A DNA stretch of 64,000 bases from an uncultured delta proteobacterium (GCA_963808625.1 CAWEHK010000035.1:1-64000); one strand, 5' to 3'. Numbered from the stretch's first letter, positions 5,102-56,185 are shown. Notes: generated by a model from the sequence alone, not told the origin. Numbers and translations: made by a program.

Positions 5102-5755
5102 TTATTCCGCGCGCAACGCTACTGCCGGTTCCATCCGCGCCGCCACCAGCGCCGGATACATCACGCCCAGGAGCGAAAGGAGCGCGGCAAGGAACAGGGC
5201 ATAGGCAACAGTGAGGAGCATCTGCAGCAGTGGCCAGAAGAGCAGGGCGGCCCATCCCAGTTTCAGGGTGAGGGAAAGAGTGGATACCAGAATGCCCATG
5301 ACACTGCCGACCAACCCGCCGAAGATCCCCTGGTAGATTCCCTCGAGGACAAAAATGCGCACCACAAAGCTGTTGAGAGCGCCCAGGCATTTGAAGGTGC
5401 CGATCTCCCGAAACCTTTCCGTAACGGCCATGAGCTGCGCATTGACAATGCCCACGACACAGACGATGAGCGACAGCATGGCCAGCCAGCGATCCTTGGG
5501 ACTGCTGCCGAAGTGGCCGTCGGTCATTTCGTAGCCACTGTTCAGGATGTCCTCTTGAAGCGCTGAATCGACATGCGGCCAGACGGAATTCAGAATCGCG
5601 TATCCCGACCAGATGTAGGCCACAAAAGCAATGGCCAGGGCGAGGCTGGCCATCGTGATGAGCGACCGGGACAGGCGGACCCTCATGGAATTGAAGGAAA
5701 TCCTCACGACCTGAGCAAAAGGCAAGACCACCTGTCTTTCAACTGATTGGGACAT
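5102..5755 (-). CDS. FtsX-like ABC permease (small)
   Basis: 'NAQLMAVTERFREIGTFKCLGA', 'YPALVAARMEPAVALR'. Confidence 0.85.
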   Translation of the reverse strand: MSQSVERQVVLPFAQVVRISFNSMRVRLSRSLITMASLALAIAFVAYIWSGYAILNSVWPHVDSALQEDILNSGYEMTDGHFGSSPKDRWLAMLSLIVCVVGIVNAQLMAVTERFREIGTFKCLGALNSFVVRIFVLEGIYQGIFGGLVGSVMGILVSTLSLTLKLGWAALLFWPLLQMLLTVAYALFLAALLSLLGVMYPALVAARMEPAVALRAE

Positions 5756-5983
5756 TTACCTTTACCCGTACCCGCGTTGCAGGTTTGAGTGCAATCAGGG
5801 CTCCCGGCCAGTACCGGCTGTGGCAATGGCACGGCACCCTCTGTTCGATAATAAAGACTTGCTTCGATGGCGTAGATCTGCTGTTCGAACGGGGATGCAG
5901 ATTAACATCTTAATGGCGGATGGAAGATTTTTCAACCAAAACGGCAGGGTTTTATGGCCGTTGCAAAACAAGTGGTCAGCAAT
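5223..5983. repeat. 761-bp imperfect direct repeat, copy 1 (5' part of permease gene plus upstream region)
   Basis: Aligns by eye with 16858-17618 from tgcagcagtggccag to aaacaagtggtcag(c/t)aat. Confidence 0.95.
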
Positions 5984-6263
5984 CTTCCAGCTTCACAGTC
6001 ATATAAAATCGATGGCTGTCTTTGTGCCAAATTATTTTCTGCGTGCAGACCAATTGGAGGAGGCGCCTGCTGGAATCACCAGACGAGCAATAACCCACGG
6101 ATTGTTTGACTTATCTGAAAAGCAGCCGGACGTTTTCAAGACCTACGCTGTGGACGAATGGGTCATGCGGAAGTTCAAGTTCGGAAACCATATCAATGAC
6201 CGTTACCGGTGGCATTCCCGTCTGTGATATAATGTCTTCACACCTGACCAAAGAGGAATTCGC

Positions 6264-6935
6264 ATGGTTTTTGTGCCCAATCTGACCATCCTTCCGCCGC
6301 CTCAACTCCGCTTGTGGCCGGAGCTTGATGCCACGCCCGAACATTTCACCCTCTACGGTGGGACGGCGCTGGCGTTGCGGCTCGGACACCGGAGCTCGGT
6401 CGATTTTGATTTCTTTTCCAACCGGTCTTTTGACCCGGACGAACTCGCGGAGGCGATCCCTTACCTCAAGGGGGCCGAGCGTGTGCAGGTTGCTCCCAAT
6501 ACCCTGAAATGTCGCGTGGAGCGTGGCGGACCGGTCTTGCTTTCGTTCTTCGGCGGCCTTGGGCTTGGACAGGCCGCGCCGCGTGAGCAAGTGCAGGGGC
6601 GCATCCTCTATGTGGCTTCGCTGCTTGATCTGGCCGGGACGAAGGTTGCAGTGGTGCAGAAACGGGCCGAGGCAAGGGACTATCTCGACATCGATGCGCT
6701 GATCCAGCACGGCATCGACTTACCGATGGCGCTTGCAGCGGGGCAGATCGTTTATGGACGCAGTTTCAATCCCATGATTACGTTGAAGGCTCTGACCTTT
6801 TTTGATGATCTGCCAACCTTGTCCGCCGAGGTCAGGCAACGGCTCATCGCCGCCGTTGAGGCTGTCGATCCGACCGGACTTCCCGTGCTCACGCCGTATG
6901 CCAGGCGCAAAGAGGAAAACGAACACGCACCATGA
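6264..6935 (+). CDS. Nucleotidyltransferase, AbiEii/AbiGii toxin family (type IV TA)
   Basis: 'LYGGTALALRLGHRSSVDFDFF', 'KVAVVQKRAEARDYLDI'. Confidence 0.85.
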   Translation: MVFVPNLTILPPPQLRLWPELDATPEHFTLYGGTALALRLGHRSSVDFDFFSNRSFDPDELAEAIPYLKGAERVQVAPNTLKCRVERGGPVLLSFFGGLGLGQAAPREQVQGRILYVASLLDLAGTKVAVVQKRAEARDYLDIDALIQHGIDLPMALAAGQIVYGRSFNPMITLKALTFFDDLPTLSAEVRQRLIAAVEAVDPTGLPVLTPYARRKEENEHAP

Positions 6936-9904: not shown

Positions 9905-12900
9905 TTATCTCGGCACTTGCTGTTGCTCTTCCTGAACAGCCAGGCGGACAGCCTCTACCACTTCCTGCCAGGCTTTCTCTCGGTCCTTTCTGGTTGAGAT
10001 AGCCGTGCCGTCCTTAGGTACGAACTGCAACCTCATTAGCGGTGTGCTCTTCCAAACAACCGGCTCAACCAGGATCGGGATAATCCGGCCCTCGGCGTTT
10101 TCCGCCCGGCTTAAAAAGATTCTAATCTCCTCTAGCGCATATTCGGATGACAGGAACGAGGGGCTCACGAGGACAAGCGCGATCCTTGCCTCTTCCAAGG
10201 CTTCTTGGAGAGAACCACTCCAGGCTTCTCCGGATGCAGGCAAATCTTCGGCGGCGAGAAGACGGATCAGCTCCTGCTGGACGAGTGGTTCAAGAGATGC
10301 GCGGAGTTCCACCGCCGCTGGCTCGTCCTTGAGGGAGTAACTCAGAAAGACCGTCAGCGGCACAGCCAGCGGGCGCCAGAGCTCGCGGCCGCCTTTACCC
10401 ACCAGCCGGTTGACGATGGTCGTGACAATTTCGGTCCGCTCGAAGTAGGAAAAGTGGTTGATGTCCGGACCTGCGAAGAAAACGAAGCGGATGGGGTCGC
10501 GGCGGGAAGCGCCGCCGAACATCGCGTCAGTGCGGACCAAAAGGTCATTGTCCTGGTTCATGATGGGATCAAGCGCCATGGCCGTCAACCGGTCGGACAA
10601 GGAAACAGGCCGGAAGGCGCCGGCCACGATGGAGAGGTCGGCGTCCACTCTCACACCGGGCCGGTTCAGCATGCGAATCAGCGGTGAAGAAGGCGCCGAG
10701 GCCCGGAAGCCTGGAATCCTTTCAGGGTCGGAGCAAAGTTCCGCCAAACCGGGGGGGAATTTGTCGATCAAGCTGCCAATAAATCCCAATCCCCGGGAGA
10801 GCCTGCCGAACAGTTTGTGGGCGCGCTCTGGAAATTCCGTGCCGCGAACCGGACAGGCGACGCGGACAAAGCGATCGATACGGAACCGCTTTTCTTCGAG
10901 CACATTACCGAGTTGCTCCAGGGCCTTGCGTTCTTCGCCTGTAAAGAGAGAGAGGTCTGTTTCATCAATGGGGGGACCGGCGATACGTCCGCTCCGGCAG
11001 AGGAGTTCCCCGATGAGCCCGCCCTGAGAGAGACTGAGGATGTGGAGACGGGAGCCAACCGGTAGAGCCTCTGCGAGTGTCAGAGCATTAATGACCGGAG
11101 AAATAGAGAGCCCCCAATGCTCGAAAGCGAGGATTTTCGTCCCATAGCACACGACAATCTCCCGCCCCATGGGCTGCCCTAATCCCTGCCAGAGCGGCCC
11201 GAAGGTGTTATGGGTATTGCTGGCAGCGCCATGCAGAAGGAGGAGGATCGGGCTGTCATCGGCAGGCAGATGTTTGGGCACCGGCTCCAATTCCAGTTCT
11301 TCGGTCACGGACACGCGATAAAGCCCGGGTTCTGGCACCATCCTCCTCTCCACCTCGCGGAGGAGGAGCAGCGTCGGTTCGGCGGGGGGGACGACTCTTC
11401 GGCCTCCTGGAACCCGGGGGTGGTGGCGGCCGGAAACGGGAGAGTGAAGTCAGGATCACCGTGGACCTGGAAGGCAGCCCAAGCGGTGGATTGGGAGTAT
11501 ACCCGCCGGGTTTCCTGCCGCGCCAGAAGGCCGGCCTCGGCCAGGGTGCTTCCTGCGAGGAGGGCTGAGTAGAAGGCCAGCACGAAAAGGGATGCCGGCT
11601 CCGGCTCCACGGTCCAGCCGTTGACCAGAATTGCCTTCACCCCCACCTGCTCCAGGGCGCGACCCCACTCCGCGGCAAAGGCAGGGGTGAGGAGCGCGGG
11701 CTGGCGATTTCCCCCCTTATCCCCTGGAACAGCATGCAAGACAACTAGTTCCGGCAGTACCCTCATCTGACGTATTTCTTCAGGCGTGAGCAGCAGACCG
11801 TCGCCCAGGTCAATACCGGCGCGTCTTTCGCCTGCCGGCCATGCTGGGAAACCATTTGTCTCGAAAGTCTTGGAGAAAACCTTGGACTGAGAAGCTCCGC
11901 TGGAAGAATCCTCCTGCAGGCTTGCGGCTAGAGGTCCTGCCAAGTGCAGCACGCGGACCGGCTGACTGTAGAGCTTGTTCAAGCTGTCCTTAGGAGCACC
12001 TTCAAACCCATCAGCGTTTGGGAAACCCGCTCCAGCCATGAGTTGGAGCACCTGTTCCGCTTCCTGCCGTAGTGCTGCAATCCATGGACCAGGTGTGCTT
12101 CCGGCGAAGGTTAATACAAGGGTCTTCGCCGACATGCTCTGCATATTGGGGGACTCGTTAACCAGTATTTTGGGGGAGAAACGGTCCTTCTCCCACTGCC
12201 CGGAAACGGACCGTCGAACCAGTCTGCCGGTAAGTCCCAGGGCGCTGTCCTCGTCACTCGCAGATAGCCGGATCATCTCCCACGGGATCAAATCCGTCCC
12301 ACTGTCGAGCAAGAGCAGGAAGTCCGTGGAGTCTATCTGTTTTTTTCTTAGAAATGTCCACTCATCGAACGGCATCATTTCTGTCAAGGTGGCGCCCGTG
12401 GAGCTATCCAATTGACCAAGCTGCAAACGTTCCCTAAGAAAATTCATAAGCAGTCGAAATTGCTCAGGTGGGAGGCTAAACTCTTCTCGGAAAGTATCCG
12501 ACGTACCGTCATTAAGGGAAAAAACGGTATGCCCCCCGGCATCTGTGTTTGACTGGAAGGTAAACCAATTGGCCGGCGGCCCGGACCAAAAGCCGAATGG
12601 GGGCGCCTGGAACTCCTGACGCCAGGCGTTGCGGAGCCGCGCCGCGTAGATCCCCACGGCAACACGCTCCATCCTGCCCGCCACGACTGGCACCCGCGCC
12701 GTCCGCTCCATGCTGTTTTCGTTCCAGATGACCTCGACGAGCCGTGGGTCGGTGTCAGGGAGCGGCAGAACCTTCCGGGTGCGAGGGGTGAGGTTGCCCA
12801 GCTCCAACCAACCTCCGCTCCGCCTCACGCCGAGCCTTGCGACCGGCAGGTCTGCCAGCAGGACTGCAGGGTCGCTCTCCGCGGTGGCTGCGAGCTTTCC

Positions 12901-13471
12901 GCTCCCGGTCGTAGCTTGGGTGGCAACAAAGCGAAGGGCCTGGCCCGCCTCGGTGCCAAAGACGGCTGGCGGCAGGCGGCCCACGGCTTGGGACGCCCAA
13001 GCGAGGAGCCCGCGGCGGTCGCCTTCGGCAAGTGCCTTCACGGCTCGGGCTATTTCGAGATTGACTTCGTCGAGATTCCCCGAGACAATGTTCCAGGCAA
13101 CTCGCTCCTCAAGCGCAAGCGCAGGGGAGAGGTGCTGGTGTACCTCTTCCATGACGGCCCTTGCGAGCGTTATCCGCGCCTGCTCCTCCGGGGTTTTCCA
13201 ATGAGATGCAAGTTGCTCCCTTAAGTACCTCCTTCACCGCCGGGTCGAGCCCGATGCCGGCCGCGCTCCGGCTGCGCACCAGGCGGCTAAACCATAGTTC
13301 CGCCTCAATCCAGAGGCCTTCTCCAGGGAGCACAGCAAGGCGCATGGCGCGCAGCAGTTCCGGCTCGATGCGGACCGCTGGGGCGACAAACCGGGCAAGC
13401 GTAAGCGCAGCCGGGCATGTCCCCCCAAGTTCTGCTACCCTGGCCTCGGCCCATTTACGCAGTTCGTCCAC
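9905..13471 (-). CDS. Multidomain effector: helical adaptor + CHAT (caspase-like, apparently inactive) + alpha/beta-hydrolase + TIR; frameshifts near 13200 and 11340
   Basis: Joined ORFs 13109-13471 ('VRIEPELLRAMRL...EAELWFSRLV'), 11305-13152 ('IPWEMI','VLHLAG','GWTV','AWAAFQVHGDP'), 9905-11353 ('LLLHG','SLSQGG','NHFSYF','VFLSYS...SPSFLSSEYALEE'). Confidence 0.7.
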
Positions 13472-13474
13472 AGT

Positions 13475-14444
13475 TCAACCTCCTCTGCGCTTGAGCAGCC
13501 TCCGGATGGTTCCCGCAGTGGTGGGCCGATCCCATTCAACCAGGACAGGTCCTCCCCGGAGTTCCTCGGGCCAGCGATCGGCCGGATAGGGAACAAGAAC
13601 AATCAGCGCTGAGCCCTGTGTGGCAAGAAGTCCCGCAAGGTCGTTCCACTCCCCTGGTTGGCTGCGGTTCACGTGCAGGATGGGGCCGCCAATCCCCGCG
13701 TCGCTGCACCGCCACGACCGGTACGCCCATCTGCGGTGGCCGGTAGGCGCCAAGTATTGCCCCATTCAGGACTCCCCGGCTGGGGCAATTCACAAACCGC
13801 GCTTCCTGAACGTGGTCCGGCCCGATACATTCACGGAACAGCTCAAGCAATCGGATCTCGTCCATGATAAAAGGCTCCATGGCCGGCCCAATATCAAGGA
13901 GGAGCTGCACACCAAGAGCCAGGGACCAGCACGACTTCCGGGGGATGACGGTGGTTGGCATGCCGGAAGCCGCGGCCGAAACCAGCCGAGCCTCATCCAC
14001 CTCCCCGATGGGGAGCGGCGTTGCGGCGAGCGTAACGGCGAGCGCACGTGACCACTCCGGCCGGAAGACGGGTTGATAGGGTGGAGGGATCCGGCCCTGC
14101 CCATGCTGGTAAGGGGCAAGCGGCCGCACCGACTTCCATTCATTGGATGGCCCGGTGGACTCGGTTATCCCGATAAAGGGCAGTTCCTCTTCGGTCCCGT
14201 CAAGGTCATCTGGCGGCGATGGCTGTCGCGGTTGGGCAGATGGTCGGACATCAGCAACCGGCTCGCTTTCCTGAACCGCGCGGTCAGGCTTCGGCGGTTC
14301 AGGGGCTTCCACGGTTGGTGTTCGCGGCATCCATGCGAAACCGGTCATGCGGGCAAGCTTCGACTGTGTGGTCTCGTCGCCGGGCGCCAGGACATGAAAG
14401 GCGCGGAGTAAATCCCCAAGCCAGATGTCGGAATCGCGCTTCAT
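13475..14444 (-). CDS. vWA-like component of a MoxR-vWA system, frameshift near 13700
   Basis: 'GVQLLLDIGPAMEPF', 'VVAV..DAG', 'LVPYPADRWP'; ATGA-coupled to MoxR. Confidence 0.65.
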
Positions 14445-15511
14445 GTTCTTATGGCCTCATCTTTCAGGAGCGTGGCCTGCTCCACCACGTTCCAGGTGGT
14501 GCCACCGCCCACTCCGATGCCGAGCGTCATGCAGACCCGCACCGCGTCGAGGAACTCCGCGGTTCCGGGCAGTCGCCGCCGAGAACGGACACGCTCGGCG
14601 CGCAATTCCTCAAGTCGAGAGGGCTATGCTTTCTCGCCAAGTTTTCGTGGTCCGCCGTAAAGATCCGCCCCGGCGGCCGGTGGAAATGCAACCGGGCAAT
14701 CTCTACCAGCCGCTCTGCCTTCGGGTGCTCAAGCTTGTGCACGATGCAGCGTCGCAGGAAAGCGGGCGGAAGTTCTACGCTCCTCATTGGTGGTGATGAC
14801 AATCAGGAGCGTGCTCATGTTTCGGCCGTCTTTGCCAAGCCTTGTCTTCGCCGCTTCCCGGAGTCTGACCACCACGGCGCGTTCGCGGATGTCGGTAACC
14901 GGAAACTCCATTGAACCGAGCGGCACGAGGAGCGCATTGGGGACGTCGGGATCGGCTTTATCGAGTTCATCGATGAGCACCACCGCGCAGTCCGAGTCGC
15001 GGTTCTTGTTCACCTCTGAGTTTGGCTCTTCCGCGAGTGCCGGGCCGTCGTCCTTGCCGGGCTCCCAACCGCGACGCCGGGCCGACTCCCGGTCAAAAAC
15101 CCACCACAGCACGCCGGGTTCGATGTAATCATAATCGGAAAGAGGCACGGTGGGGTGTTGGGCACCACGGGCCTGGGCATCGGCGAGCCGGCGCACCAAG
15201 TCGAATTTCCAGAGCAGATCCTGGGCGCTCGTCCGCGAGGTGACTACGCTTTCGTAATACCGGTAGCCTAGATTGCGCGCCACGAAGGCGGCAAGCGACG
15301 ATTTGCCGCAGCCGGGATCGCCACGGAGCAGAAGCGGGCGGCCGGTGGCAAGCGCGAGCTCCACTGCAAGCTGCAGGTGGGAGTCGTAATGATAAATTCG
15401 ACCGTCCCGGCGATCAGGGGCATCCAGGGTGTTCCCGGCATCTTCGGACAATGTCTCGTTCGCAAGCGGATCGATAAGCGGTGTATACACTAGCGTGACG
15501 TCGATGGACAT
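14441..15511 (-). CDS. MoxR-family AAA+ ATPase, frameshifts near 14770 and 14580
   Basis: 'RPLLLRGDPGCGKS', 'VVLIDELDKADPDVPNALL', 'ITTNEER', 'LPPAFLRRC'. Confidence 0.9.
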
Positions 15512-15538
15512 GTTCTGGATCCTCCAAATTGGTATGCG

Positions 15539-16837
15539 TCAGCCCGCGAGATTGCGGAGCAGAATCTTGTTGATCAGGGCCTGATCTTCGTCTTCTCTAC
15601 GGATTTCGGGGAGAAGGCGGATGATTGATGAGGGGTCAGGGGCATTTTCGAAGTGCGGCCCAGCAAGCTGCAGGCAGGTGATGGTCTGAAGCTCCTCGGA
15701 GTCGGCGAGAAGTATCTTGAACTCGGGAGTGAGGGGCACTTGCTCCCCCATCACCACAAAGAGGGGATACGCTTCTACAAGGCCACGAATTATTTCCGGC
15801 GCTGTTGTGCCGGATACGCCCAAAGTGGTCGCGATGTGCTGGTGGATGCGTTCAAAGGCTTCCACCTCCTGCCCTTCACCCAAGGGCTCGTTGAAACTGA
15901 GGCACCGCGTGTTCCACCAGGAAGGACAGCAAAAGGCGCGCTGAAGATAATCGCGCGCCGTATCGAATTGGTTGGTGTTCAGCGCAAAAGATCGGGAAGC
16001 CGCTGCCTGGGTCGGGTGACTGGCCACGATCCCCGAGGCAGCTTCGGCATGCACCCAGATGGGTAGCACGAGTTCGACAACGGCGGCGAATGCTCCCTTG
16101 TCAGTAAAGCCTGGCTTGAGATTCACGAGGGCCTCGCGGGCTGCCTGTAGACTTGTGAACAGCAGGTGGTGGGCGACCATGATCGGCCGATCCGGGAAAT
16201 GCGCCCAGTCCTCATCGAGGATGCCAAGCGGGTTGCAGGCCCGTTTCAAGATAGTTTCATCGATACCTTTGAGCCGCACCGCGACATCCTCAACCCATCG
16301 CTGGATCTCGTTGTCGTCAGCAGTCAGAGCAAGCCCCGCAAACCCCTCCGCCACCTGCCCGGCGAGAAGTTCTGCGTTGGCCTCGTTCAGCTCTGACGCT
16401 GCATTGAGCCGTGCTGCCTGAATCTCGTCGAGCTGTAAAGGAGCAAAGCCCCGCTCTGGGAGCTTCTTGAAGATATCGCCAATGATGACCGGCACAAGCA
16501 CGAAGCTGTCTCTGAGCCACTTGCGCCACGTGCAGATAGTCGCCTCCTGAAGCACCCATTTAGATTCGATCGAGTCTTCGCTGAGGAGTATAACTGCACC
16601 ATCGCAGACACCGAGCCAGTGAAGAAGCTTCGTTCGCCAGCGGTCGCCGGGGTCGAGCAGTTCGCGGTCTAAGAGCACCTCGAAACGATCTCTCAATTTT
16701 TCTTCAAGCCTATCACGCACCAGCTTTACAAATTTCAGACGCCGACGCCGTTCATCCGTTTCCACTGCAAAGGGGACTCCGCCGGAAATCTCGATGTCCT
16801 TACAGCTGTGGCTAATGAAAATCTTGGGTTTATTCAT
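15539..16837 (-). CDS. TIR-domain protein with uncharacterised C-terminal region (putative sensor/adaptor)
   Basis: 'KIFISHS', 'LDPGDRWR', 'LSEDSIESKWVLQE'; start placed at MNKPK (16837). Confidence 0.8.
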   Translation of the reverse strand: MNKPKIFISHSCKDIEISGGVPFAVETDERRRRLKFVKLVRDRLEEKLRDRFEVLLDRELLDPGDRWRTKLLHWLGVCDGAVILLSEDSIESKWVLQEATICTWRKWLRDSFVLVPVIIGDIFKKLPERGFAPLQLDEIQAARLNAASELNEANAELLAGQVAEGFAGLALTADDNEIQRWVEDVAVRLKGIDETILKRACNPLGILDEDWAHFPDRPIMVAHHLLFTSLQAAREALVNLKPGFTDKGAFAAVVELVLPIWVHAEAASGIVASHPTQAAASRSFALNTNQFDTARDYLQRAFCCPSWWNTRCLSFNEPLGEGQEVEAFERIHQHIATTLGVSGTTAPEIIRGLVEAYPLFVVMGEQVPLTPEFKILLADSEELQTITCLQLAGPHFENAPDPSSIIRLLPEIRREDEDQALINKILLRNLAG

Positions 16838-16850
16838 GATTCTCACGTTG

Positions 16851-17390
16851 TTAAGAATGCAGCAGTGGCCAGGAGAACAGGGCACTCCAGCCCAGCTTCA
16901 GGGTGAGGGAAAGAGTGGATACCAGAATGCCCATGACACTGCCGACCAAGCCTCCGAAGATCCCCTGATAGACCCCCCCAGGGCAAAAATGCGCGCCACA
17001 AAGCTGTTGAGAGCGCCCAGGCATTTGAAGGTGCCGATCTCCCGAAACCTTTCCGCAACGGCCATGAGCTGCGCATTGACAATGCCCACGACACAGACGA
17101 TGAGCGACAGCATGGCCAGCCAGCGATCCTTGGGACTGCTGCCGAAGTGGCCGTCGGTCATTTCGTAGCCGCTGTTCAGGATGTCCTCTTGAACCGCTGA
17201 ATCGACATGCGGCCAGACGGCATTCAAGAATGGCGTATCCCGACCAGATGTAGGCTACAAAAGCAATGGCAAGGGCCAGGCTGGCCATCGTGATGAGCGA
17301 CCGGGACAGGCGGACCCTCATGGAATTGAAGGAAATCCTCACGACCTGAGCAAAAGGCAAGACCACCTGTCTTTCAACTGATTGGGACAT
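16851..17390 (-). pseudogene. 3'-truncated second copy of the small FtsX-like permease
   Basis: Same N-terminus MSQSVERQVVLPF as 5102-5755; homology stops at 16858. Confidence 0.85.
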
Positions 17391-17618
17391 TTACCTTTAC
17401 CCGTACCCGCGTTGCAGGTTTGCGTGCAATCAGGGCTCCCGGCCAGCACCGGCTGTGGCAAAGGCACGGCACCCTCTGTTCGCTGAGAAAGACTTGCTTC
17501 GATGGCGTAGATCTGCTGTTCGAAAGGGGATGCAGATTAACATCTTAATGGCGGATGGAAGATTTTTCAACCAAAACGGCAGGGCTTTGTCGCCGCCGCG
17601 AAACAAGTGGTCAGTAAT
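16858..17618. repeat. 761-bp imperfect direct repeat, copy 2
   Basis: Matches 5223-5983. Confidence 0.95.
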
Positions 17619-17686
17619 GAAATCTGTCCATATAATAAGTGCCATGGGCGAGCGTAATGTGAAGGTGAGCACGAAAGGAGCAGGAG

Positions 17687-18829
17687 ATGAACAAGCGGTT
17701 TTCCAGGAATTTGGTTTGGGGAGTCGCGCTGATGAGCGTTGCTCTGCTGTCTTGGGTGAGTCTTGGGCTGGGCGCGTCAACACCAAAGATCTGGTTTACC
17801 AAGGTTTCGTCTTATGGCGATGCGAACGGCTACGCCTGGGGCAGGGTTTCGGGTGTTCCTTTTAGTGACTGCAAGGTGTTGGCGTATCTTGAGGTCGAAA
17901 AAGTCTGGTGGACCAAACCAAGCTTCGTAGCTCCGGCAACAAAAATTTCCCCGGATGGTACGTGGAAGGTGGACATAACCACCGGAGGGAGCGACAAGTG
18001 CGCTTCGAAGGTGTGGGTTTTTCTCGTCCCCAAAACAACCGACGCAACCAAGTACCAGTGCGCTCCGTGCTGCGGTGATATCACGATCCTTGAAGCCGTT
18101 GCCAGTGCCGTTTATGACCGCAGTCCGACACCGAGAACCCTTTCGTTCTCCAACTACCAATGGCATTTGAGGCGAAGCAGCTGCCTCGAGGGACCCGGAC
18201 AAAACTATTTCTCCGACACCGCCAGCCGCGTGTGGATCGACCAGGCTGGGCTTCATCTAACGATCACCAAAGGGGCTAATGGTCGTTGGTACAGCACGGA
18301 GGTAGCGTTGAGTGAGTCGCTCGGATACGGTGTTTACCGGATGGTAACGAACAGCCGGGTTGACACGCTCAACCGGAATGTTGTCGCCGGTCTCTTTACT
18401 TACGATCACAAGGCTTGTGACGATCAGCGTCGAGAGCTGGATTTCGAGTTCACGCGCTGGGGTAATGTCAGAGAATATACCAATGCCCAGTATGTCGTCC
18501 AGCCTTGTGGCGCCTGCCCTGGCTGTGGCGGCAATTGCGAGCGCTTCCGGGTTGATCTGACGAATGCAAACAAGTATCTCACCCATTATCTCACTTGGTC
18601 GCCGACCAAGGCGGAATTCAAGACCTACCGAGGCAAATTCGGAGATGCTCCGCCTTCGGATAGTTATCTGGTCCATCGCTGGATGTATGACGTTCCCGAT
18701 ATGCCCGTTCCCGGTGAAGAGAAATTCATGTTCAATCTTTGGCTGAACGGGGGCAATCCACCCAGCAACGGAAAGAACGCCAAGTTGGTGATCTCCGATT
18801 TCTCCTGGCAGCCGCTAAAGGCCGAATAA
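17687..18829 (+). CDS. Secreted GH16-like (ConA fold) glycoside hydrolase
   Basis: Signal peptide; 'LGYGVY', 'VVAGLFTY', catalytic-type ExDxE 'RELDFEFTRWG', 'NLWL'. Confidence 0.7.
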   Translation: MNKRFSRNLVWGVALMSVALLSWVSLGLGASTPKIWFTKVSSYGDANGYAWGRVSGVPFSDCKVLAYLEVEKVWWTKPSFVAPATKISPDGTWKVDITTGGSDKCASKVWVFLVPKTTDATKYQCAPCCGDITILEAVASAVYDRSPTPRTLSFSNYQWHLRRSSCLEGPGQNYFSDTASRVWIDQAGLHLTITKGANGRWYSTEVALSESLGYGVYRMVTNSRVDTLNRNVVAGLFTYDHKACDDQRRELDFEFTRWGNVREYTNAQYVVQPCGACPGCGGNCERFRVDLTNANKYLTHYLTWSPTKAEFKTYRGKFGDAPPSDSYLVHRWMYDVPDMPVPGEEKFMFNLWLNGGNPPSNGKNAKLVISDFSWQPLKAE

Positions 18830-30052: not shown

Positions 30053-30216
30053 CTAAGTGCAGCACAGCAGAATAAAGTGCCCATTACCACCCGGTCGTCA
30101 TTCCCGCATGCTCTCAGCGGGAATCCAGGGAATTTGCACAGCCTGGATTCCCGCCAGAAACACGCGGGAATGACGAGTGGCATTCGGACACCTAATTTAT
30201 GCGGTGCTGTACTAAG
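30053..30216. mobile_element. MITE-like element, copy A (~160 bp)
   Basis: Flanked by CTAAG on both sides; terminal IR gcagcacagcagaataaa / tttatgcggtgctgtac; internal REP palindrome; nearly identical to 50285-50447. Confidence 0.8.
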
Positions 30217-30982
30217 TACTGGGCGCCTGGGCTTTTAGTGAGTCGGCCAGGAAAATTCGCAGTTGCGTAGCCAGGTTATGGGCCTGCCGCAGGGGCTCGG
30301 GGATGCGGAATCGGCCCAGACAGCGATGAATCAGGTCCTTCGAGCTTTCGAGATCGCTCAGATGGCCGGGCGAGATGTAGATGGGTTTGACGCCGTCGCG
30401 GGAGCGAAACACCCAGCCGACCACCTCGTCCCGAAGATGCAGAGGCGTTGCACTACCCCGACGAAACTCAAGCTCACCGTGCTTGCCGCAAAGGAGTTTC
30501 TTCGCGCAGCCCACGGTGGGGGTATCGAGGCAAAGCCCAAGATGCGAGGCGAGCCCGAACCTTCGCGGATGGGCGATTCCCTGACCGTCGCACAGCAGCA
30601 CCTCGGGTGGCTGCCGAAGCTTGCGGTGAGCTGCCAGCAGTGAGGGCACTTCCCGAAATGAGAGGAGACCGGGTACATAAGGGAAGGTAATGGGGGCGAC
30701 CACGTGGGAGCGCTCGATGAGACCGAGATCGGGCCACTCAAAGGTCACCATTACCGCAACCAGCTGATTCGATGCGGCAAGGTAGGCAATATCCGCCGCG
30801 CCCAGGACCCGGAAGGTTCTGGGGAGCGATTGTAGCCTCACGTGCGCGGCGAGTTCCCGCTGCCGATCTCTGGCTTCCGCGGGTTGGACTTCCCAAGGAT
30901 TCGAAGCCCTGTCGTCGCTGGCTTCGGATGATAGCACAGCACCGTCTTGCTCTCTCTGCCGCTGCCCTGTGTTATCGCCCAT
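30212..30982 (-). CDS. nfi: Endonuclease V
   Basis: 'FPYVPGLLSFRE','CDGQGIAHPRRFGLASHLG','PIYISPGH','RIPEPLRQAH'. Confidence 0.95.
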   Translation of the reverse strand: MGDNTGQRQREQDGAVLSSEASDDRASNPWEVQPAEARDRQRELAAHVRLQSLPRTFRVLGAADIAYLAASNQLVAVMVTFEWPDLGLIERSHVVAPITFPYVPGLLSFREVPSLLAAHRKLRQPPEVLLCDGQGIAHPRRFGLASHLGLCLDTPTVGCAKKLLCGKHGELEFRRGSATPLHLRDEVVGWVFRSRDGVKPIYISPGHLSDLESSKDLIHRCLGRFRIPEPLRQAHNLATQLRIFLADSLKAQAPST

Positions 30983-32916: not shown

Positions 32917-33024
32917 AGAGAGCGTTTGCAGCTGCTTGTAGAAACATAACCTTGCTCCAATTTCATCAGGCTTGAGGACAAGTGCCTAGTACTACAACGA
33001 TACTTTGGTGAAGGTCCAAGCTGT

Positions 33025-33091
33025 GTGGGGCAGGTTTTCCGGCCTGCCATGCTGAACTGCCAGAAGGCGGGCTAGAAAGCCTGCCCCACAG
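33025..33091. repeat. REP doublet (GTGGGGCAGGCTTTCCAGCCTGC family)
   Basis: gtggggcaggttttccggcctgcc...gctagaaagcctgccccac; relatives at 41628 and 46752. Confidence 0.75.
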
Positions 33092-33127
33092 AATGAAGGA
33101 CCGTCTGCAGAAACCTCGTTGTCAGTA

Positions 33128-35427
33128 CTAACTACACCGCGAAAACCCGCACGAGCGGCACACGATGCATCCGCCTTCGTGTTCTACGGCGCCGCCGCAG
33201 TCGGGGCAGGCGCCCATCAGGCTTTGAACGGGGGTGATGTTGGCCTGCGCGTGATGGTTGAGGACGGTGGCGATGGCGTCCGAGCACGAGACGATCTGTT
33301 CGCCGTTCTGCCACATGGGCGAGGGGCAGCGGATGCCCATGAGCTGCTTGATGATGGCCTCGATTTTGACGCCGGAACGCAGCGCCAGGGAAATCAGGCG
33401 CCCGGTGGCTTCGATCTGCGAGTAGGCGCAGCCGCCGGCCTTTCCCATCGAGGCAAAGACTTCACAAAAACCGTGCTCATCCCAGTTGACGGTCACGTAA
33501 AGCTTTCCGCAGCCGGTGTTGATTCGTTCCGTAATGCCGCTGGTCATATCCGGACGGGGGCGTGGTTCCACCTGCGGGTACTGAGGCTTGCGCTGGATAT
33601 TCAGCACCTGGGCGTCGCGGCTGCCGTCCCGGTAGATCGTCAAGCCCTTGCAGCCCAGGTCATAGGCCATGAGGTAGGCGTTGCGCACATCCTCGGGAGT
33701 CGCGCTGAACGGGAAGTTGATGGTCTTGCTTACGGCATTGTCGGTGTACTTCTGAAAAGCCGCCTGGATGCGGATATGCCATTCCGGGCTGACATCATGG
33801 GATACCACGAAAGTCCGGCGCACCTTCTCCGGGATTTCGCGGAAATCCTGGATGGTCCCTTTCTCGGCAATCCGTTTCATGAGCGTCTTCGGAATGGAAG
33901 CCCTCCGCCTTGGCCACTTCCTGGAATAAGGGATGGACCTCGAGCAGTTCCTGGTTATCCAATACCTTACGGACGTAGCTGATGGCAAAGAGCGGCTCGA
34001 TCCCGCTGGAACAGCCCGCGATGATGCTGATGGTCCCCGTCGGGGCGATGGTGGTGGTGGTAGCGTTCCGCATGATAGGGTGTATCGGGACGATCGTAAA
34101 GCGAGCCCTGATAGTTGGGAAAGTTGCCTCGCGCCTTGCCCAGATAAGCGGAGGCCGCCTTGGATTCCTCCTGGATAAAGGCCATAACGGTTTCCGCCGT
34201 CTGCACCGCTTCCTCGGAATCGTAAGGGATCCCGAGGGCGATCAGCAGATCGGCGAAGCCCATAACGCCGAGCCCGATCTTGCGGTTTGCCCGGGTCAGT
34301 TCCTCGATCTTCGGGAGCGGGTATTTGTTGACCTCGATGACATTATCGAGGAAATGGACGCCGTCCCACACGACTTCCTTCAAATGGTCGTAATCGAGGT
34401 TGCCGGCTTTGACCATGTGGGCGAGATTGATCGAGCCGAGATTGCAGGATTCATAAGGCAGCAGAGGCTGTTCGCCGCAGGGGTTGGTGCTCTCGATCTG
34501 CCCCACGGCCGGAGTGGGATTGAAGCGGTTCATCACATCCAGGAAAATGAGCCCAGGCTCGCCGTTTTTCCACGCGCACTGCACAATCTGATCGAAAACG
34601 CTTCGCGCGGGCAGGCTCTTGAAGCGCTCCCCCGTGCGCGGATTGATCAAATCGTATTCGGTATCTTCCTTGACCGCATTCATGAAGGCATCGGTGGCGG
34701 CCACGGAGATATTGAAATTGGTCATGCGGTCATTGTCGGTCTTGCAGGTGATGAATCTTTCGATATCCGGATGATCCACCTTGAGGATACCCATGTTGGC
34801 GCCGCGGCGGGTGCCGCCCTGCTTCACGGTTTCCGTAGCGACATCGAAGACCGTCATGAAGGACACCGGACCGCTGGCCACGCCCTGGGTGGTCAGGACC
34901 TGGTCGTTTTCCGGCCTGATCCGGGAGAAGGAAAAACCCGTGCCGCCCCCGCTCTTGTGGATCATCGCCGCGTGCTTGATGGCATCGAAAATGCTGTCGA
35001 TGGAATCCTCGACGGGCAGCACAAAACACGCCGAAAGCTGGCCCAGGGGGCGCCCCGCATTCATCAGGGTCGGCGAGTTGGGAACGAAGTCGAGGGAGGC
35101 CATCAGCCGATGGAATTTTCGCGCCGTTTCCTCGACCTTTGCTGGTCCTTCATAGGCAGCGTCGCCTTCGGCAATGGCCCGCGCCACCCGCCAGAACAGC
35201 TCTTCCGGGGTCTCGATGAGCTCGTTGTTCTCGTCCTTCCTGAGATAGCGCTTCTTGAGCACCACCAGCGCGTTGTCCGACAAGCCCAGCGGCGGTCCTT
35301 TTTGTCCTCGCGTCTTGCGTTTCCCTTCGGATGTCATAACTCGCTCTTGTTGTGGCAGGACTTGGGTGTCACCCATGTATTCATATTCCGTCATCTTAAA
35401 TTTTATCCTTTTTCGAGACCAATACAA
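33128..35427 (-). CDS. nrdJ: Class II (B12-dependent) ribonucleotide reductase with C-terminal TSCPD/Zn-ribbon region; frameshifts near 34080 and 33900; true start probably ~35337-35394
   Basis: '[10 protein letters not shown]','QLSACFV','RRGANMG','TNPCGEQPL','CNLGSINL','TIAPTGTIS','DNAVSKTIN','CPDCG'. Confidence 0.92.
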
Positions 35428-35731
35428 TTGTCCGATGAGTGAAAAGTGCCGGCGGTCATCGAAGATATCCCAATCGCTTCTGGCTGCCGATTCCGAGGCT
35501 TCAGCCGGTCCTCATGACCATCCTCAAAATTGTCCTCATCATAGGGAAAAAGAAACCGGTGTCAAAAGATAAAATGTCTTGGAAAAATGAGGTCTTTCAA
35601 CCAAGTGACAAGATATTAAAACCAAAATAACCGACTTCAGAGAGATGCCTGACGGACTTCCTTGGCCTATCGATGGCGCCGCTTTAAGTTTATACTCGGC
35701 GCGGAAGATGGCATTTGAGCAGGTTCGGAAT

Positions 35732-35795
35732 CGTCATACCGGCGAAAGCCGGTATCCAGGCAATCCTTCTGGATTCCGGTTTTCACCCGAATGAC
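35732..35795. repeat. REP-like palindrome (reverse-complement copy at 43885-43949)
   Basis: cgtcataccggcgaaagccggtatccagg...ctggattccggttttcacccgaatgac. Confidence 0.75.
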
Positions 35796-35866
35796 ACTGT
35801 CAGCGAATATGGTTTCTTAATTCTGCCGTGCTGTGCGAAACTGACAGGGAGTGAAAACGATCCGGG

Positions 35867-38357
35867 ATGAAACCATTTACGATCATGACTATCGTCCTTA
35901 CGGTGTGGCTGATCGCCTGCCCCTGTGCGGGGCAGGAGAAGGCGGACACGCAAACTACAGTCCCGCAATTGCTCCCCAAGGTGTTCACCAAAGACGAAAG
36001 CGCCGCCCCGGGCAAAGACGCCAAGACCCCAACTTCCAGCGCTTCCTGGGCTTGCGGAAGTTGTCCCCCGTGCGGCCGATTTGGGGCAGAAGGCGATCAA
36101 GGCCGAAGAAGCCATTGCCGCGACCAGAGACATTTCAGCCTTGGAGCGGCGGATCGGCGACACGGAAAGCCACGTCACACAGCTAACCAAAAAGATCGCC
36201 GGCCTGGGTGATCCTGCAAACTGGAATATTTACCGGCTGCTCGACGCCCAGCACATGATTGACGGCGAAAAAAACAAGCTTGGTGCCCTTGTTGATGCCA
36301 TCTCGTTAAGGCTTTCGGAGCTCGAAACCATCCGCATGGCCTGGGAGGAAGAAGCCACCTTTTGGAAGAAGTGGGAAGAATCCCTCAGTGAGGTACAAAC
36401 CGAGATTCCTCCCGGGACCTTTAAGAAGGCGACGGAAACAGCCCACGCCGTCCTCCAGTCGGTTGCCAACGCCTCCGGCCCCCTCCTGGCTCTCCAGCAA
36501 AAGCTCACGAAACAGCTCGACGAAGCTCGCCAACTGAGCACTCCGATCGAATCGGCGTTGAAAAAATTGCGCAGTGAGAGATTCGAAAAGAATGCTCCCT
36601 CTTTCGTTACCAGGGAGTTCTTTGAGCAGTTCGACAGGAGGCTTTGGGACGCGGTGAAGGGCGGCATAATCGACGGTTGGAAGTTGGATAGCGAATACCT
36701 TCCTCTCTTCACCTGGATGATCTCTCTGCAAGTCCTTTGCACCATAATCCTCGTTTACCTTATTCGGAGACGTCGGCATTTACCCGAGAAAACCGGGGAA
36801 TGGCACTTCGTCAGGAAACATCCCTGGGCTTTTGCGATTTTTGTAACCCAGGCGGTGACCGCGCTCTTCTACCAGGTGCCGGCCCCCTCCTGGTTGTTCC
36901 TGACCTTTGCCCTGGTGATCTTGTCAGCCTCGTTTCTGATTTCCGACCTGCTTCCTCATCCGCGGATACGCCGGGTGGTTGTTCGTCCTGGCAGGGGTTC
37001 AGATTATCTCGGCGGTGTTGAAGCTGATTTCGCTTCCGGTGCCCCTCTTCAGTGTTTATCTGGCGCTGATTCTGGTGGTGATAATCTGGTTCTTCCTCAA
37101 CCAGGCCAGGCGTCAGGTAGCCGAGCGGGAAGGCAGGATGGACCTGCTTGCTGCGGGATTGCGCGGGGGAGCGCTGGTCGGATCTGCCGCCCTGTTTGCC
37201 CTGCTGGCCGGCTATACGCAACCTGGCAGACTATCTGATGCGTTCTTCCATCGGGACCATTTTCCTGATCATCGTTGCAGGCTTGCTTTTCCACCTCGGA
37301 AATGGATGTGTCGAAGTTCTGTTGAGCCAACCGGCTGTTGCCCGCCTGGGGTTTATTATCCGGTTCGGAGCGGCCCTCGAATCCCGCCTGAAGAATTTGC
37401 TTAAAGCCATCCTCTGGATCGGGGTTTTTTTGGCCCTGTTTCAACTGTGGGGCGTCTACACGTCTTTCGGTCAGGCGTGGGAAAAGATCATCGATTTCAA
37501 GTTTGCCCTTGGTGAGCTGAATCTCAGCCTTGGCCGGATTCTGCTGGCGGCGCTATTCTTCTATCTCATCGTTTCCGGTTCCTGGTTTATCCGCGCCTTT
37601 CTGGACGGCGAGGTGTTTCCGCGCCAGCAACTCGATCGCGGCGCCCGGGATGCGATCAAGAAGTTGATCCACTACTCTCTCCTGTTTTTTGGGATCATGG
37701 TTGCGATTGGCGTCATCGGCCTCAACCTGACCAGTTTCGCTTTTCTGACCGGCGCCATCGGTCATTGGCGTGGGTTTTGGCATGCAGAATATCGTGAATA
37801 ACTTTGTCAGCGGTCTGATGCTGCTTTTTGAACGGCCATTCAAGATCGGCGATATGGTCGTCGTGGACAATGAGACCGGCACGGTGAGAAAGATTGGGCT
37901 GCGCTCGACCATCATCGAAACCTTCGACCGCTCGGAATTGATTGTCCCCAATTCCCAGTTTATTTCCGGAAAAGTGACAAACTGGACCCGCACCAGCCAT
38001 ATTGCCAGGATTAGAATTCCGGTTGGGGTCGCCTATGGCAGTGATGTCGAGCTGGTTTTGCGGCTGCTCAGGGAAGCTGGTGAAACCGACCCGCGGGTTC
38101 TGTCCAACCCTGCGCCCAATCCCCTCTTTCTTCGCTTCGGGGACAGCTCCCTGGATCTCGAACTGCACGTCTGGATTGCCGATGTGGGAGATCTGCTGGC
38201 CGTCAGGAGCCATCTCTGTCAGGAAATCGCCCGCCGCTTTCAGGAAGCCGGCATCGAAATTCCCTGTCCTCAGCGCGACCTGCATTTGCGCTCCATTGAT
38301 GAAGGCGTGCTCGAACGGGCGCTCGGGTTGCGGAAGAAAGATGTGCCCGCGGAGTAA
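35867..38357 (+). CDS. MscS-family mechanosensitive channel with long periplasmic N-terminus (several frameshifts)
   Basis: 'GFGMQNIVNNFVSGLMLLFERPFKIGD','IGLRST','IVPNS','VGVAYGSD'. Confidence 0.85.
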
Positions 38358-38898: not shown

Positions 38899-38971
38899 GT
38901 CTAAGGTCGGAGGCATCGTTCTCGCGAGGAAGAAATTGGCTTGAACAGCGCGTCCAAAAAGGGCTTCCGGT

Positions 38972-39051
38972 CGTCACCCCCGCATGCTTCTGGCGGGGGT
39001 CCAGGGAACAAGCAGTGCCTGGATTCCCGCCAGGAGCATGCGGGAATGACG
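38972..39051. repeat. REP-like palindrome (GTCATTCCCGC family)
   Basis: cgtcacccccgcatgcttctggcgggggtccagg...cctggattcccgccaggagcatgcgggaatgacg. Confidence 0.8.
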
Positions 39052-39188
39052 ATTTTGGGCTCTTGATGGACGGGCAATCATATGACGATTTGGGCCCCAT
39101 GCGACACGGCAACACATCACAAAGCCACTTTTTGAAAGTCTTTAGGCACCCCCCAAGGGGATTGATTCAAGGAGAAGGAGAAGAGTGC

Positions 39189-41730: not shown

Positions 41731-42007
41731 TCCCCTTTTTAATCTTCTCTTAACGTTCCCCCTCTCGCCTTTTGAGGCAAGCAGCCGGCAGGTGCTTCGA
41801 CCCGGCGGAAGCGGAGCGGAGCGTCTCGAAAAAGAAGGAGGAACAAAGATGCCAAGGGAATTTGGACACTGGTGCATTTGGGCGGAAATCGTTAGCCAGT
41901 TCCGGTGGGCACGGTGAAGCGGTGCCCACTTTAAAGTGTTCCCGGTTCCGTAGGGTGGCAGATTTTTTTGTCCACCGGAAACATGCACGAACTTATTCAC
42001 GTGTGTA

Positions 42008-42898
42008 CTAAAAGTCATAATCGAGCGTCACCGCGACGCGGTTGCGCAGTTCTTTTCTCACCGCAAGGTTCCATTTCTTTGCCGCATTGGCCGACCCATA
42101 GATATTTCCCAGGTAAAAGGGCAGGCCAATGCCGCCGACGATGCCCGCTACGGCATAGTTCTCATGGTACACCGCGGTTACCGTACCGGCGATTGCCAGG
42201 GCATTGATGAGAAAGGCAGTAATGCCGTCCCCGTAATGTTCGGCGTAAATGTACCCGCTGCCGGGCAGGACTGCGGACATGATGCCGGCCAGCGCTTCCG
42301 ACTTTCGGGGAAGCTGCTGGTAGTGATCGAGCAGCCCAATGGCTTCTTTTGCCTTTTTCGAACCGGGATAATCGGGGTAGGTTTCACCAAGTTTTTCGAG
42401 TCCCTGCCGGCTGGCACTCACCTTTTCCTGGTCCAGCGCCAGCATCGCGTTGGCAACCAGGGCCAGCGGCGCATACTCAGAGTCCGGGTAGGAAGCGGCG
42501 AGCGTCCCCAGGGCGGTCCCCGCATCCTGGTATTGCTTCAGTTTCCAGTAAGCGAGTCCCTCATAATACTGCGCCTGCGGGGCATAGCGGCTCTCCGGAT
42601 ATTTTTCCCTCAGGGCTGCAAGGGTCCGGGTGGATGGCTCATATTCTTCACCGCGATAATAGGCCGTGCCCATTCTGAAGAGGACGTAATCCCCCTGGTC
42701 GGATTCCGGAAAGATGATCAGGAACTTCTTGTATTCGGTGATTGCCCGATAGGTCTCCCCTTCCTCCAGGAAGGCATCGGCGATCTTCAACTGCATGGCT
42801 TCCGTCACCATGACCCCCGTTTCCGCAGCGTCGGACCGGTTCATGAGGGGTATAAAGGTAAAAAACAGGAGCAGCAGCAGTCTCAGTGAAGGTCTCAT
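42008..42898 (-). CDS. TPR protein (BamD/YfiO-like) with C-terminal membrane segment
   Basis: Signal peptide MRPSLRLL; repeated 'YPESRYAPQA' TPR motifs; 'SAVLPGSGYIY'. Confidence 0.7.
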   Translation of the reverse strand: MRPSLRLLLLLFFTFIPLMNRSDAAETGVMVTEAMQLKIADAFLEEGETYRAITEYKKFLIIFPESDQGDYVLFRMGTAYYRGEEYEPSTRTLAALREKYPESRYAPQAQYYEGLAYWKLKQYQDAGTALGTLAASYPDSEYAPLALVANAMLALDQEKVSASRQGLEKLGETYPDYPGSKKAKEAIGLLDHYQQLPRKSEALAGIMSAVLPGSGYIYAEHYGDGITAFLINALAIAGTVTAVYHENYAVAGIVGGIGLPFYLGNIYGSANAAKKWNLAVRKELRNRVAVTLDYDF

Positions 42899-43698: not shown

Positions 43699-44177
43699 CG
43701 GTTACTCCTCCTGTTAATTTCGTGGCGAACAGTCTATACAGGTAAGGGCCGCTGTTGGCAACGCCAAAGGTGGGTGGGTGTCTTTTCCCGGGTTTTCAGA
43801 CAGCTTCTTGGTCCAGCGCCACAGAATAAAGTGTCCATAAACCCGGCGCGTAACCGGTGAAAACCTGAATCCATGAACCATGTGCGTCATTCCGGTGGAA
43901 ACCGGAATCCAGGAAAACTGCTTGGATACCGGCTTTCGCCGGTATGACGATCTGAATCCGGTCACTATCCAGTTTAGGTTTGAATGCTTCGTTTCGTAGG
44001 AGCGGCATCCTGCCGCGATTGGCTCACCGTCGCGGCAGGATGCCGCTACAGAGAAACAGAGATTCATCAGCATGGAAAGATCTCAACCTTAACAAGTATA
44101 ATTAGAGTTGGGCCTGGAACCGGTCATTGACTGAGATAGGACCTAGTTGAGATGGACCTGTGTATTGGGACCTGTAC

Positions 44178-50284: not shown

Positions 50285-50447
50285 CTAAGTACAGCACAGC
50301 AGAATAAAGTGTCCATTACCACCCGGTCGTCATTCCCGCATGCTCTTAGCGGGAATCCAGGGAATTTGCACAGCCTGAATTCCCGCCAGAAACACGCGGG
50401 AATGACGAGTGGCATTCGGACACCCATTTATGCGGGGGCGTACTAAG
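50285..50447. mobile_element. MITE-like element, copy B
   Basis: Nearly identical to 30053-30216, again bounded by CTAAG. Confidence 0.8.
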
Positions 50448-52200: not shown

Positions 52201-52480
52201 CGATAGGAGTCAAAATGTAGGATTGCTGCTGCCAAACTGAATCAAAATAACCTTCGCCCGGCCGAAAGCCCCTTTCGGACCGAACACCCGAGCTGTTCCC
52301 CTTGTTTCCGGAATGCCCCGCAACTCGACCCAGGATCACCCGTTTTGACCGACCTCCGACCGTCTATCCCCACCCAATGCCCCCCCAAACCACCGCAAAA
52401 CACCCCCGCCACACCAACACGAACCGCCTTCAACAACCAATGGGCTCTCGGATTTCAATTCCGAGAGTTCTCGAAGAAGG

Positions 52481-55228: not shown

Positions 55229-55272
55229 AAAAAGTAATCACCGGATGAAAAAGAAAACAAGGAGCCAAACCG

Positions 55273-56073: not shown

Positions 56074-56132
56074 GCAGATTAACGGTAGGTTATTTCTCTA
56101 CTGTCGCCGAAGCACTTCGACCCGACTACAGG

Positions 56133-56185
56133 GTGGGGGATTTTGACCCGGCCACAAGTGGGGGATTTTCAAGTGGCCATCCGGG
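56133..56185. mobile_element. Right end of the IS21-like element with tandem putative transposase-binding motifs
   Basis: gtgggggattttga cccggccacaa gtgggggattttca agtggccatccggg; the integrase frame breaks here. Confidence 0.75.

Follow-up and report, generated by a model that had tools for sequence, protein, structure and literature searches.

Among the MoxR-vWA ternary conflict systems, the closest described relatives of the locus considered here are the TERNS3 systems of Kaur, Iyer, Burroughs and Aravind (2021; eLife 10:e70394; PMC8195603). In the part of that paper that defines the class, TERNS3 is a novel alpha+beta domain, usually fused directly to a TIR domain, within the third component encoded at the 5' end of the operon. 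The order given there is third component, MoxR ATPase, a separate von Willebrand factor A (vWA) gene and, lastly, a separate gene for vWA-L plus effector. Among the entries of the source data, Figure 2-source data 1 lists EXI90101.1 as "TIR+TERNS3-N+TERNS3*-> MoxR->", and an effector of the form vWA-L+CASPASE+a/b_hydrolase+TIR is given for Azoarcus sp. HKLI-1, with CASPASE+a/b_hydrolase versions in three Streptomyces. Here, we analyze an operon of four genes, g1 to g4, at positions 9905-16837 (minus strand) of a 64,000-nucleotide stretch from an uncultured delta proteobacterium (GCA_963808625.1, CAWEHK010000035.1:1-64000), referred to below as the window. The locus is very probably a MoxR-vWA ternary conflict system of the TERNS3 type.

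This assignment is carried mainly by g1. The 420-residue open reading frame (ORF) of locus L017 was found by exact look-up to be EXI90101.1 itself, and hhalign aligned the g1 family with this protein at Prob 99.8 and E = 4.2e-29 over 345 columns (positions 2-393 against 1-358), well past the TIR domain. An independent hidden Markov model (HMM) of the C-terminal part of g1 matched the EXI90101.1 ORF at an iE of 3e-13. Because hhalign links the g1 family to this listed protein, the C-terminus of g1 corresponds to the TERNS3-N+TERNS3 module named in 2021. An earlier reading of the window, made from the nucleotide sequence alone (the sequence-only reading), had proposed that this C-terminus might define a new subtype and that the effector was unusual. 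Neither proposal can be kept, since the module is TERNS3-N+TERNS3 and the same effector string appears in the 2021 source data for Azoarcus sp. HKLI-1. Subtype and effector string are thus already catalogued, and the locus is a further copy of a known type. It combines the TERNS3-N+TERNS3 module and its N-terminal TIR fusion with a MoxR gene directly 3' and with vWA and vWA-L+effector on two genes of their own. The ORFs are not intact throughout, as five frameshifts interrupt the operon, which has no bearing on family membership. The broader claim of the sequence-only reading, an NTP-dependent ternary conflict system built around MoxR and vWA, in which the effector varies and two TIR domains are present, is supported, and the neighborhood is conserved, as described below. 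The genes and their domains are as follows.

15539-16837, minus strand: g1, third component, TIR+TERNS3-N+TERNS3; 432 residues in an intact frame
16388-16837, minus strand: TIR domain of g1, residues 1 to about 150; FxSHS, W94 and E98 invariant
16022-16384, minus strand: all-helical middle of g1, corresponding to TERNS3-N, residues about 152-272
15542-16000, minus strand: C-terminal alpha/beta domain of g1, corresponding to TERNS3, residues about 280-432
14441-15511, minus strand: g2, MoxR-type AAA+ ATPase; 356 codons through two compensating frameshifts; AAA_5 at E = 1.5e-11
13475-14444, minus strand: g3, vWA-like protein with an N-terminal helix, a Pro-rich linker and a short CoxE-type vWA-like domain; one frameshift
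9905-13471, minus strand: g4, effector protein; 3567 nucleotides, about 1,188 codons through two compensating frameshifts, with the orthologue from locus L004 mapping to frames -1, -2 and -1
12470-13471, minus strand: N-terminal module of g4, assigned as vWA-L; about 335 residues, two helical parts and a small beta-rich part; invariant E56 and W60
11455-12333, minus strand: CHAT (caspase-like) domain of g4; Pfam CHAT at E = 1e-12, profile positions 23-289 of 289
10364-11245, minus strand: alpha/beta-hydrolase region of g4, DUF7379; Pfam E = 2.7e-14, residues 37-119 of the last ORF piece
10019-10351, minus strand: C-terminal TIR domain of g4; Pfam TIR_2 at E = 1e-14, PADLOC ThsB-like TIR at E = 7.5e-19

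In the ORF lists, g1 is a single intact ORF, followed by seven ORF pieces that make up three further genes when matched to an intact operon, locus L004 of a Chromatiaceae metagenome-assembled genome. The proteins of this reference operon have 445 (g1), 380 (g2), 322 (g3) and 1162 (g4) residues, each in one frame, and g2 to g4 of the window were assembled by tblastn of the L004 proteins onto it. The identities were 58% over 360 residues for g2, 41-42% for g3 and 34-54% for g4. The spacing between g1 and g2 is 27 nucleotides and contains GGAGGA; g2 and g3 overlap in an ATGA, and g3 and g4 are separated by 3 nucleotides. The ORF lists, these gaps and the overlap bear out the four consecutive, tightly coupled minus-strand genes that had been proposed. 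Domain scans identified TIR_2 in g1, AAA_5 together with a weak bpMoxR match in g2, and CHAT, DUF7379 and TIR_2 in g4, and returned no match in g3, in the first ~270 residues of g4 or in the last ~290 residues of g1. The predicted MoxR AAA+ and vWA-like genes are present, given the AAA_5 match of g2 and the link of g3 to VWA_CoxE, as is the predicted protein of about 1190 residues with a second TIR at its end, which is g4. A profile search of the organism's own genome found the system in a single copy.

The g1 ORF spans 15539-16885 and would encode 448 residues from a GTG at 16885. We assign the start to the ATG at 16837, because the best homologues align from residue 17 of the longer form. 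The homologues (n = 27) have 317-483 residues, mostly 412-452. In the alignment of the two TIR domains, KWVLQE of g1 and EYALEE of g4 share one Glu column, so both TIRs retain the motif Glu, as the sequence-only reading had stated; E98 of g1 is invariant in 23 of 23 family members. We take this column to be the catalytic Glu position of TIR NADases.

The structure predicted for g1 has a pLDDT of 88.3, or 91.8 for the C-terminal part alone, which was folded separately because the TIR domain dominated fold searches with the whole protein. The top match of the full-length fold search was RPP1, and the top whole-region match in Foldseek was the CARD plus nucleotide-binding domain (NBD) of Apaf-1. 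The TERNS3 model has an AAA+/ORC-STAND-like five-strand core without Walker A or Walker B, and the likeness of TERNS3-N to a Death/CARD-like bundle is weak. A profile search of solved structures with g1 gave matches for the TIR domain only and none for the remaining parts. We offer the AAA+/ORC-STAND-like model as a modest hypothesis, a lead that would go beyond the published description of a novel alpha+beta domain.

The family profile of g2, when compared with solved structures, matched midasin best (E = 1.6e-16). The family alignment shows conservation of Walker A and Walker B, of sensor-1 and of the LPPAFLRRC arginine motif. The g2 match in the organism's own genome contains one TGA and one TAG. 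The g3 gene of the window has no Pfam match of its own, and VWA_CoxE was reached below threshold by 6 of the 43 g3 family members scanned. The g3 HMM matches cyanobacterial proteins that do pass VWA_CoxE, at iE 2e-10 to 2e-12, and a profile search of solved structures with g3 gave 0 matches at E<=10. In the g3 alignment, D184 is invariant, and D248 of the TDLG motif is present in at least 90% of the rows. These relationships identify g3 as a divergent CoxE-type vWA protein. The family is large: an exhaustive profile search found 3053 representative clusters with a cutoff of E<=1e-3 and 1402 with E<=1e-30. In three of its members, P0155, P0051 and P0079, an inserted TIR domain separates the N-terminal helix from the vWA domain, and P0134 (1901 residues) extends into AAA_16 and a WD40 propeller.

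We assigned the N-terminal module of g4 as vWA-L from its place in the layout, its fusions with vWA and the varying effectors behind it. In L016, L019, L101, L112-L114 and L135, g3 and g4 form one polypeptide. An ESM Atlas search with the module returned only unnamed clusters (scores 0.84-0.90), and a word-based protein search returned 6 proteins. Further downstream, the translated DUF7379 region contains SLSQGG, which may represent a nucleophile-elbow-like motif. A single-sequence search of solved structures with the g4 TIR gave nothing at E<=0.01.

The neighborhood is conserved well beyond the window, in agreement with what a gene-neighborhood search was expected to show. A g1-family scan of species-representative genomes gave 53 loci. 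Fifteen loci have g2 after g1; 12 have g3 and 11 have the g4 N-terminal module, and the rest run off their contigs. Pseudomonadota, Actinomycetota, Acidobacteriota, Chloroflexota and Myxococcota are represented among these genome loci. In metagenomes, a scan started from the g2 alignment gave 80 loci, and g1 lies directly upstream of g2 in 21 of the 29 closest (L077-L105), the other 8 having at most 973 nucleotides upstream. The effectors behind the same g4 N-terminal module vary widely and include TIR, TIR+LysM, patatin, an LCAT-like lipase, CHAT, NB-ARC, a VipA-VipB sheath fusion, DUF4062+TPR, FGE-sulfatase/FGS, DyP peroxidase and metallo-beta-lactamase.

Two observations on the relatives may be added here. 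At L087 (3163-5859), the type VI secretion sheath pair VipA (E = 2.5e-36) and VipB (E = 1.9e-116) is fused and occupies the effector place behind vWA-L, a striking capture of a cellular module by the system. A sister subfamily in the same MoxR clade (L110, L112-L114, L135 and L148) has vWA, vWA-L and FGE-sulfatase/FGS fused; its third components begin with trypsin, DUF4062 or HTH instead of TIR, and their C-terminal parts match neither the TERNS3 HMM nor Pfam iSTAND.

The relation between g3 and the N-terminal module of g4 was also addressed by structure prediction. The predicted complex of vWA and vWA-L has an ipSAE of 0.76, while the highest value among three controls is 0.00. At least 97% of the contacts are shared by the three runs, and partner pLDDT is at least 81. 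The ipSAE mark used is reached by 116 of 157 solved complexes and by 2 of 215 mismatched pairs, counts that are only rough here because the analysis used its own alignments. A pass was to be expected, because in other genomes one fused gene encodes both parts. On the vWA side, the predicted interface comprises residues 188 and 190-194 (loops after D184), 248 and 251-254 (around D248), 285-287 and 304-307. On the vWA-L side, it comprises residues 37-70, including the invariant E56 and W60, both present in g4 of the window. The model predicts that E56 and W60 of vWA-L dock on the face of vWA that resembles a metal ion-dependent adhesion site (MIDAS). This Glu/Trp latch is likewise a hypothesis, and it extends the published accounts consulted only modestly.

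Several results weigh against reading the locus as a working TERNS3 system. The CHAT domain of g4 seems to be without the catalytic Cys, with VVLHAVPG in place of the LSACDS of the bona fide CHAT of L079, in an uncertain alignment; this caspase-like domain may act as a scaffold rather than an enzyme. In g3, the MIDAS motif is degenerate, reading DIGPAM without DxSxS, and its serines are not conserved. The PADLOC models, suggested earlier as a check, place g1, g3 and g4 in no listed system and give only a generic ThsB-like match for the g4 TIR. A g1 query of 40 relatives found no system and only one weak TIR-only match. The five frameshifts fall within 6.9 kb, 2-3 times the rough count elsewhere in the window, and some of them could be real. 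Finally, a literature search found no experiment on any TERNS3 system, nor a TIR/MoxR/vWA system of this kind that had been tested, and met the name in one relevant paper, from 2021; therefore, the defence role, the NADase activity and the order of events proposed below are all inferred. A related experimental study, a 2026 preprint, concerns the beta-propeller MoxR-vWA 'Esr' pathways of Actinomycetota, a different class.

The frameshifts bear most directly on the strongest alternative, namely that the genes are a decaying pseudogene cluster, with all five breaks genuine and the system defunct in this organism. The breaks are located at ~14795 and ~14633 in g2 (a compensating pair), at 13704/13705 in g3, where profile positions 1-247 match up to 13704 and positions 247-322 from 13705, and at ~13217-13227 and ~11404-11440 in g4 (again compensating), the last adjoining a run of seven C. 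Their density and the sporadic occurrence of the system, which was not found with g1 in the relatives, fit decay, as does the GC content of 0.59-0.63 against 0.52-0.57 in the flanks, which makes the operon look acquired and dispensable. However, the same breakage affects essential genes of the window. In five same-genus relatives, ribonucleotide reductase is encoded by one ORF of 756-802 residues; the gene of the window, with a TSCPD domain, occupies frames -2, -3 and -1. This gene and its neighbor, at 33131-35472 (minus strand) and 35846-37158 (plus strand), each span three frames against single ORFs in the relatives, that is, two breaks in each, and according to Pfam the ABC_tran and DUF4301 genes are split between overlapping frames as well. 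The indels aside, in-frame stops and deletions are absent from the operon, which keeps an identity of 40-58% to the intact L004 orthologues. The two frameshift pairs compensate exactly, with ELPPAFLRRC kept in the shifted frame between the g2 pair, and the source genome is an assembly 84.6% complete in 54 contigs. Because housekeeping genes in the same window are frameshifted too, and no less strongly, assembly indels are the likelier cause, and we hold this with fair confidence. The frameshifts foreseen by the sequence-only reading are thus real features of the assembly, while its decayed-locus option is disfavored and appears unlikely. The locus is genuine, and the system, of a type defined computationally, is probably functional.

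A second alternative would place the TERNS3-type operon, as a divergent case, among the VMAP or Pfam-iSTAND ternary systems of Kaur et al. 2020 rather than in a separate class. The order of third component, MoxR and vWA and the logic of variable effectors are indeed alike. The g2 profile matches MoxRs from both classes, at 1e-51 to 1e-54 for true iSTAND systems and at 1e-37 to 1e-44 for VMAP systems, and the g3 profile matches vWA proteins of iSTAND systems at ~1e-10. In addition, the TERNS3 model is AAA+/STAND-like without a P-loop, which is the meaning of iSTAND. The sequence-only reading had pointed to VMAP and iSTAND profiles for the C-terminal region of g1, and the comparison places it in neither family. 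With a cutoff as loose as E<=5, PF20028 (VMAP-C) matched 0 of the 23 members of the g1 family, and it gave no match in the organism's own genome. Against seven true VMAPs, hhalign gave a Prob of 0.1%, and the HMM of the g1 C-terminal part had no match on VMAP loci. The N-terminal motifs of VMAP-type MoxRs, WxhapG and PsWRxa in the portion of Kaur et al. 2020 that treats them, were not seen by eye in the g2 alignment, which reads PDRRDGxVY and has no conserved Trp. For Pfam iSTAND, PF19995 likewise matched 0 of 23 members at E<=5, whereas cyanobacterial iSTAND systems, used as a control, matched at 3.6e-8 to 1.5e-29; the hhalign Prob was 0.2% with 4 sequences and 0.55% with 23. In the MoxR tree, which has a midpoint root only and carries a long-branch warning, a branch with 100/100 support parts this family (27 rows) from the MoxRs of the Pfam-iSTAND and VMAP types (9 rows). 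TERNS3 is also held distinct in the relevant part of the 2021 paper (eLife 10:e70394). We therefore consider membership in either class improbable, clearly more so than decay.

The remaining alternative, a housekeeping MoxR-vWA chaperone pair of the CoxD/CoxE or RavA/ViaA kind that helps a metabolic or membrane complex to mature, possibly the ABC/FtsX transporter next to it, would fit the known assembly chaperones among such pairs (as far as Kaur et al. 2020 describes them), the start of g1 just past the stop of an FtsX-like permease gene and a window rich in MacB/FtsX transporter genes, but it is very improbable given that the transporter neighbor is not among the conserved genes of related loci, where only g1-g4 recur, that conflict systems are typically marked by features seen here, namely two TIRs, a hypervariable effector end and a patchy distribution across taxa, and that an AbiEii toxin-like gene lies 3 kb away.

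The surroundings of the TERNS3-type operon contain several other elements. The FtsX-like permease gene (16851-17795, minus strand) is itself frameshifted, and the operon may be co-transcribed with it, because only 13 nucleotides separate its stop from the start of g1. The AbiEii-type nucleotidyltransferase toxin domain lies at 6228-6932 (plus strand; Pfam E = 1.2e-16), and the ORF directly upstream of it (5715-6224) has no Pfam match and could encode an antitoxin. A mobile-element cluster at 52349-56761 comprises a 915-residue protein with Mu-transposase C-terminal and Toprim domains, an IstB-like ATPase (E = 1e-47) and a fragment of a phage-type integrase. Short intergenic repeat families of ~65-165 bp are spread over many contigs of the genome, with dozens of copies that are 84-95% identical. 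Copies in the window lie at 30054-30217, 50285-50447, 32985-33132, 38941-39065 and 41870-42017, and there is an inverted repeat pair at 35730-35795 and 43886-43951. These families resemble elements of the MITE (miniature inverted-repeat transposable element) or REP (repetitive extragenic palindrome) type and have weaker copies in same-genus relatives.

We propose a mechanism that largely follows the general model of the 2021 authors. In the resting state, vWA would hold the effector protein, its MIDAS-like face gripping E56 and W60 of vWA-L. The TERNS3 protein, as a P-loop-less AAA+/STAND-like module, may sense the invader. In the part of eLife 10:e70394 that deals with sensing, nucleic-acid sensing is proposed for iSTAND and iSTAND2 only; the tentative extension to TERNS3 is made because of the AAA+/STAND-like fold of the model. 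On sensing, TERNS3 would oligomerize and its N-terminal TIR would be switched on, giving either an NAD+-derived signal or a TIR-TIR assembly with the effector TIR. Past a threshold, the MoxR ring would spend ATP to remodel or release the vWA-bound effector. The TIR of the released effector could then deplete NAD+ and its hydrolase could cut lipid or protein substrates, leading to cell death or arrest before the invader spreads.

A more speculative extension, which we consider slightly less likely to be right than wrong, is that TERNS3 forms a third lineage of P-loop-less AAA+/ORC-STAND modules placed behind a Death-like bundle, with E56/W60 plugging the MIDAS-like face of vWA and MoxR pulling the effector off. 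If so, g1 would be arranged like Apaf-1 and like immune receptors of the TNL (TIR, nucleotide-binding, leucine-rich repeat) type, in the order TIR, adaptor, NBD, and the Glu/Trp latch would act like the ligand carboxylates in the MIDAS domains of integrin and midasin. All MoxR-vWA ternary classes could then be unified as machines made of an inactive-STAND sensor and a MIDAS-latched effector. The finding adds no new class, and its value is practical, the type having been catalogued since 2021 (eLife 10:e70394). The class is large, its vWA component falling into at least 1402 distinct clusters (50% identity) at E<=1e-30, and is outside the coverage of the PADLOC models used. Either of the two structural hypotheses, the degenerate AAA+/STAND sensor or the Glu/Trp latch, could guide the first biochemistry of MoxR-vWA switches.

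Compared with the TERNS3 systems of 2021, the locus shows nothing different in kind, as the third component of ~410-470 residues, the gene order and the effector string are alike. The copy in the window differs by its five frame breaks, in an error-prone uncultured assembly, and by the apparent lack of the CHAT Cys. In the iSTAND systems, a TIR or adaptor likewise precedes the rest of the third component, which is NTPase-like and inactive, as TERNS3 is modeled to be, and their MoxR and vWA proteins are detectably homologous. However, there is no sequence-level link between iSTAND and TERNS3, and the MoxRs fall in separate, fully supported clades. The four-gene layout is found in a minority of iSTAND systems, cyanobacterial examples being arranged as iSTAND, MoxR, VWA_CoxE and FGS. 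As for iSTAND2, eLife 10:e70394 sets it apart from TERNS3.

The VMAP systems share the gene order, a tripartite third component (N-terminal signalling domain, helical middle and alpha/beta C-terminal domain) and hypervariable effectors, including FGS. In contrast, their vWA and effector are usually one polypeptide of 1350-1750 residues, and VMAP-C was not detected in the system of the window. Thoeris likewise has TIRs with a conserved Glu, and the g4 TIR resembles PADLOC ThsB at the domain level only. No ThsA-like gene is present among g1-g4 (the rest of the genome was not searched), and the TIRs of the window sit within a MoxR-vWA switch. Beyond bacterial defence, the order of folds in g1, with a TIR, a helical bundle and a core modeled as AAA+/STAND-like, is like that of Apaf-1/CED-4 and of the plant TNL receptors.

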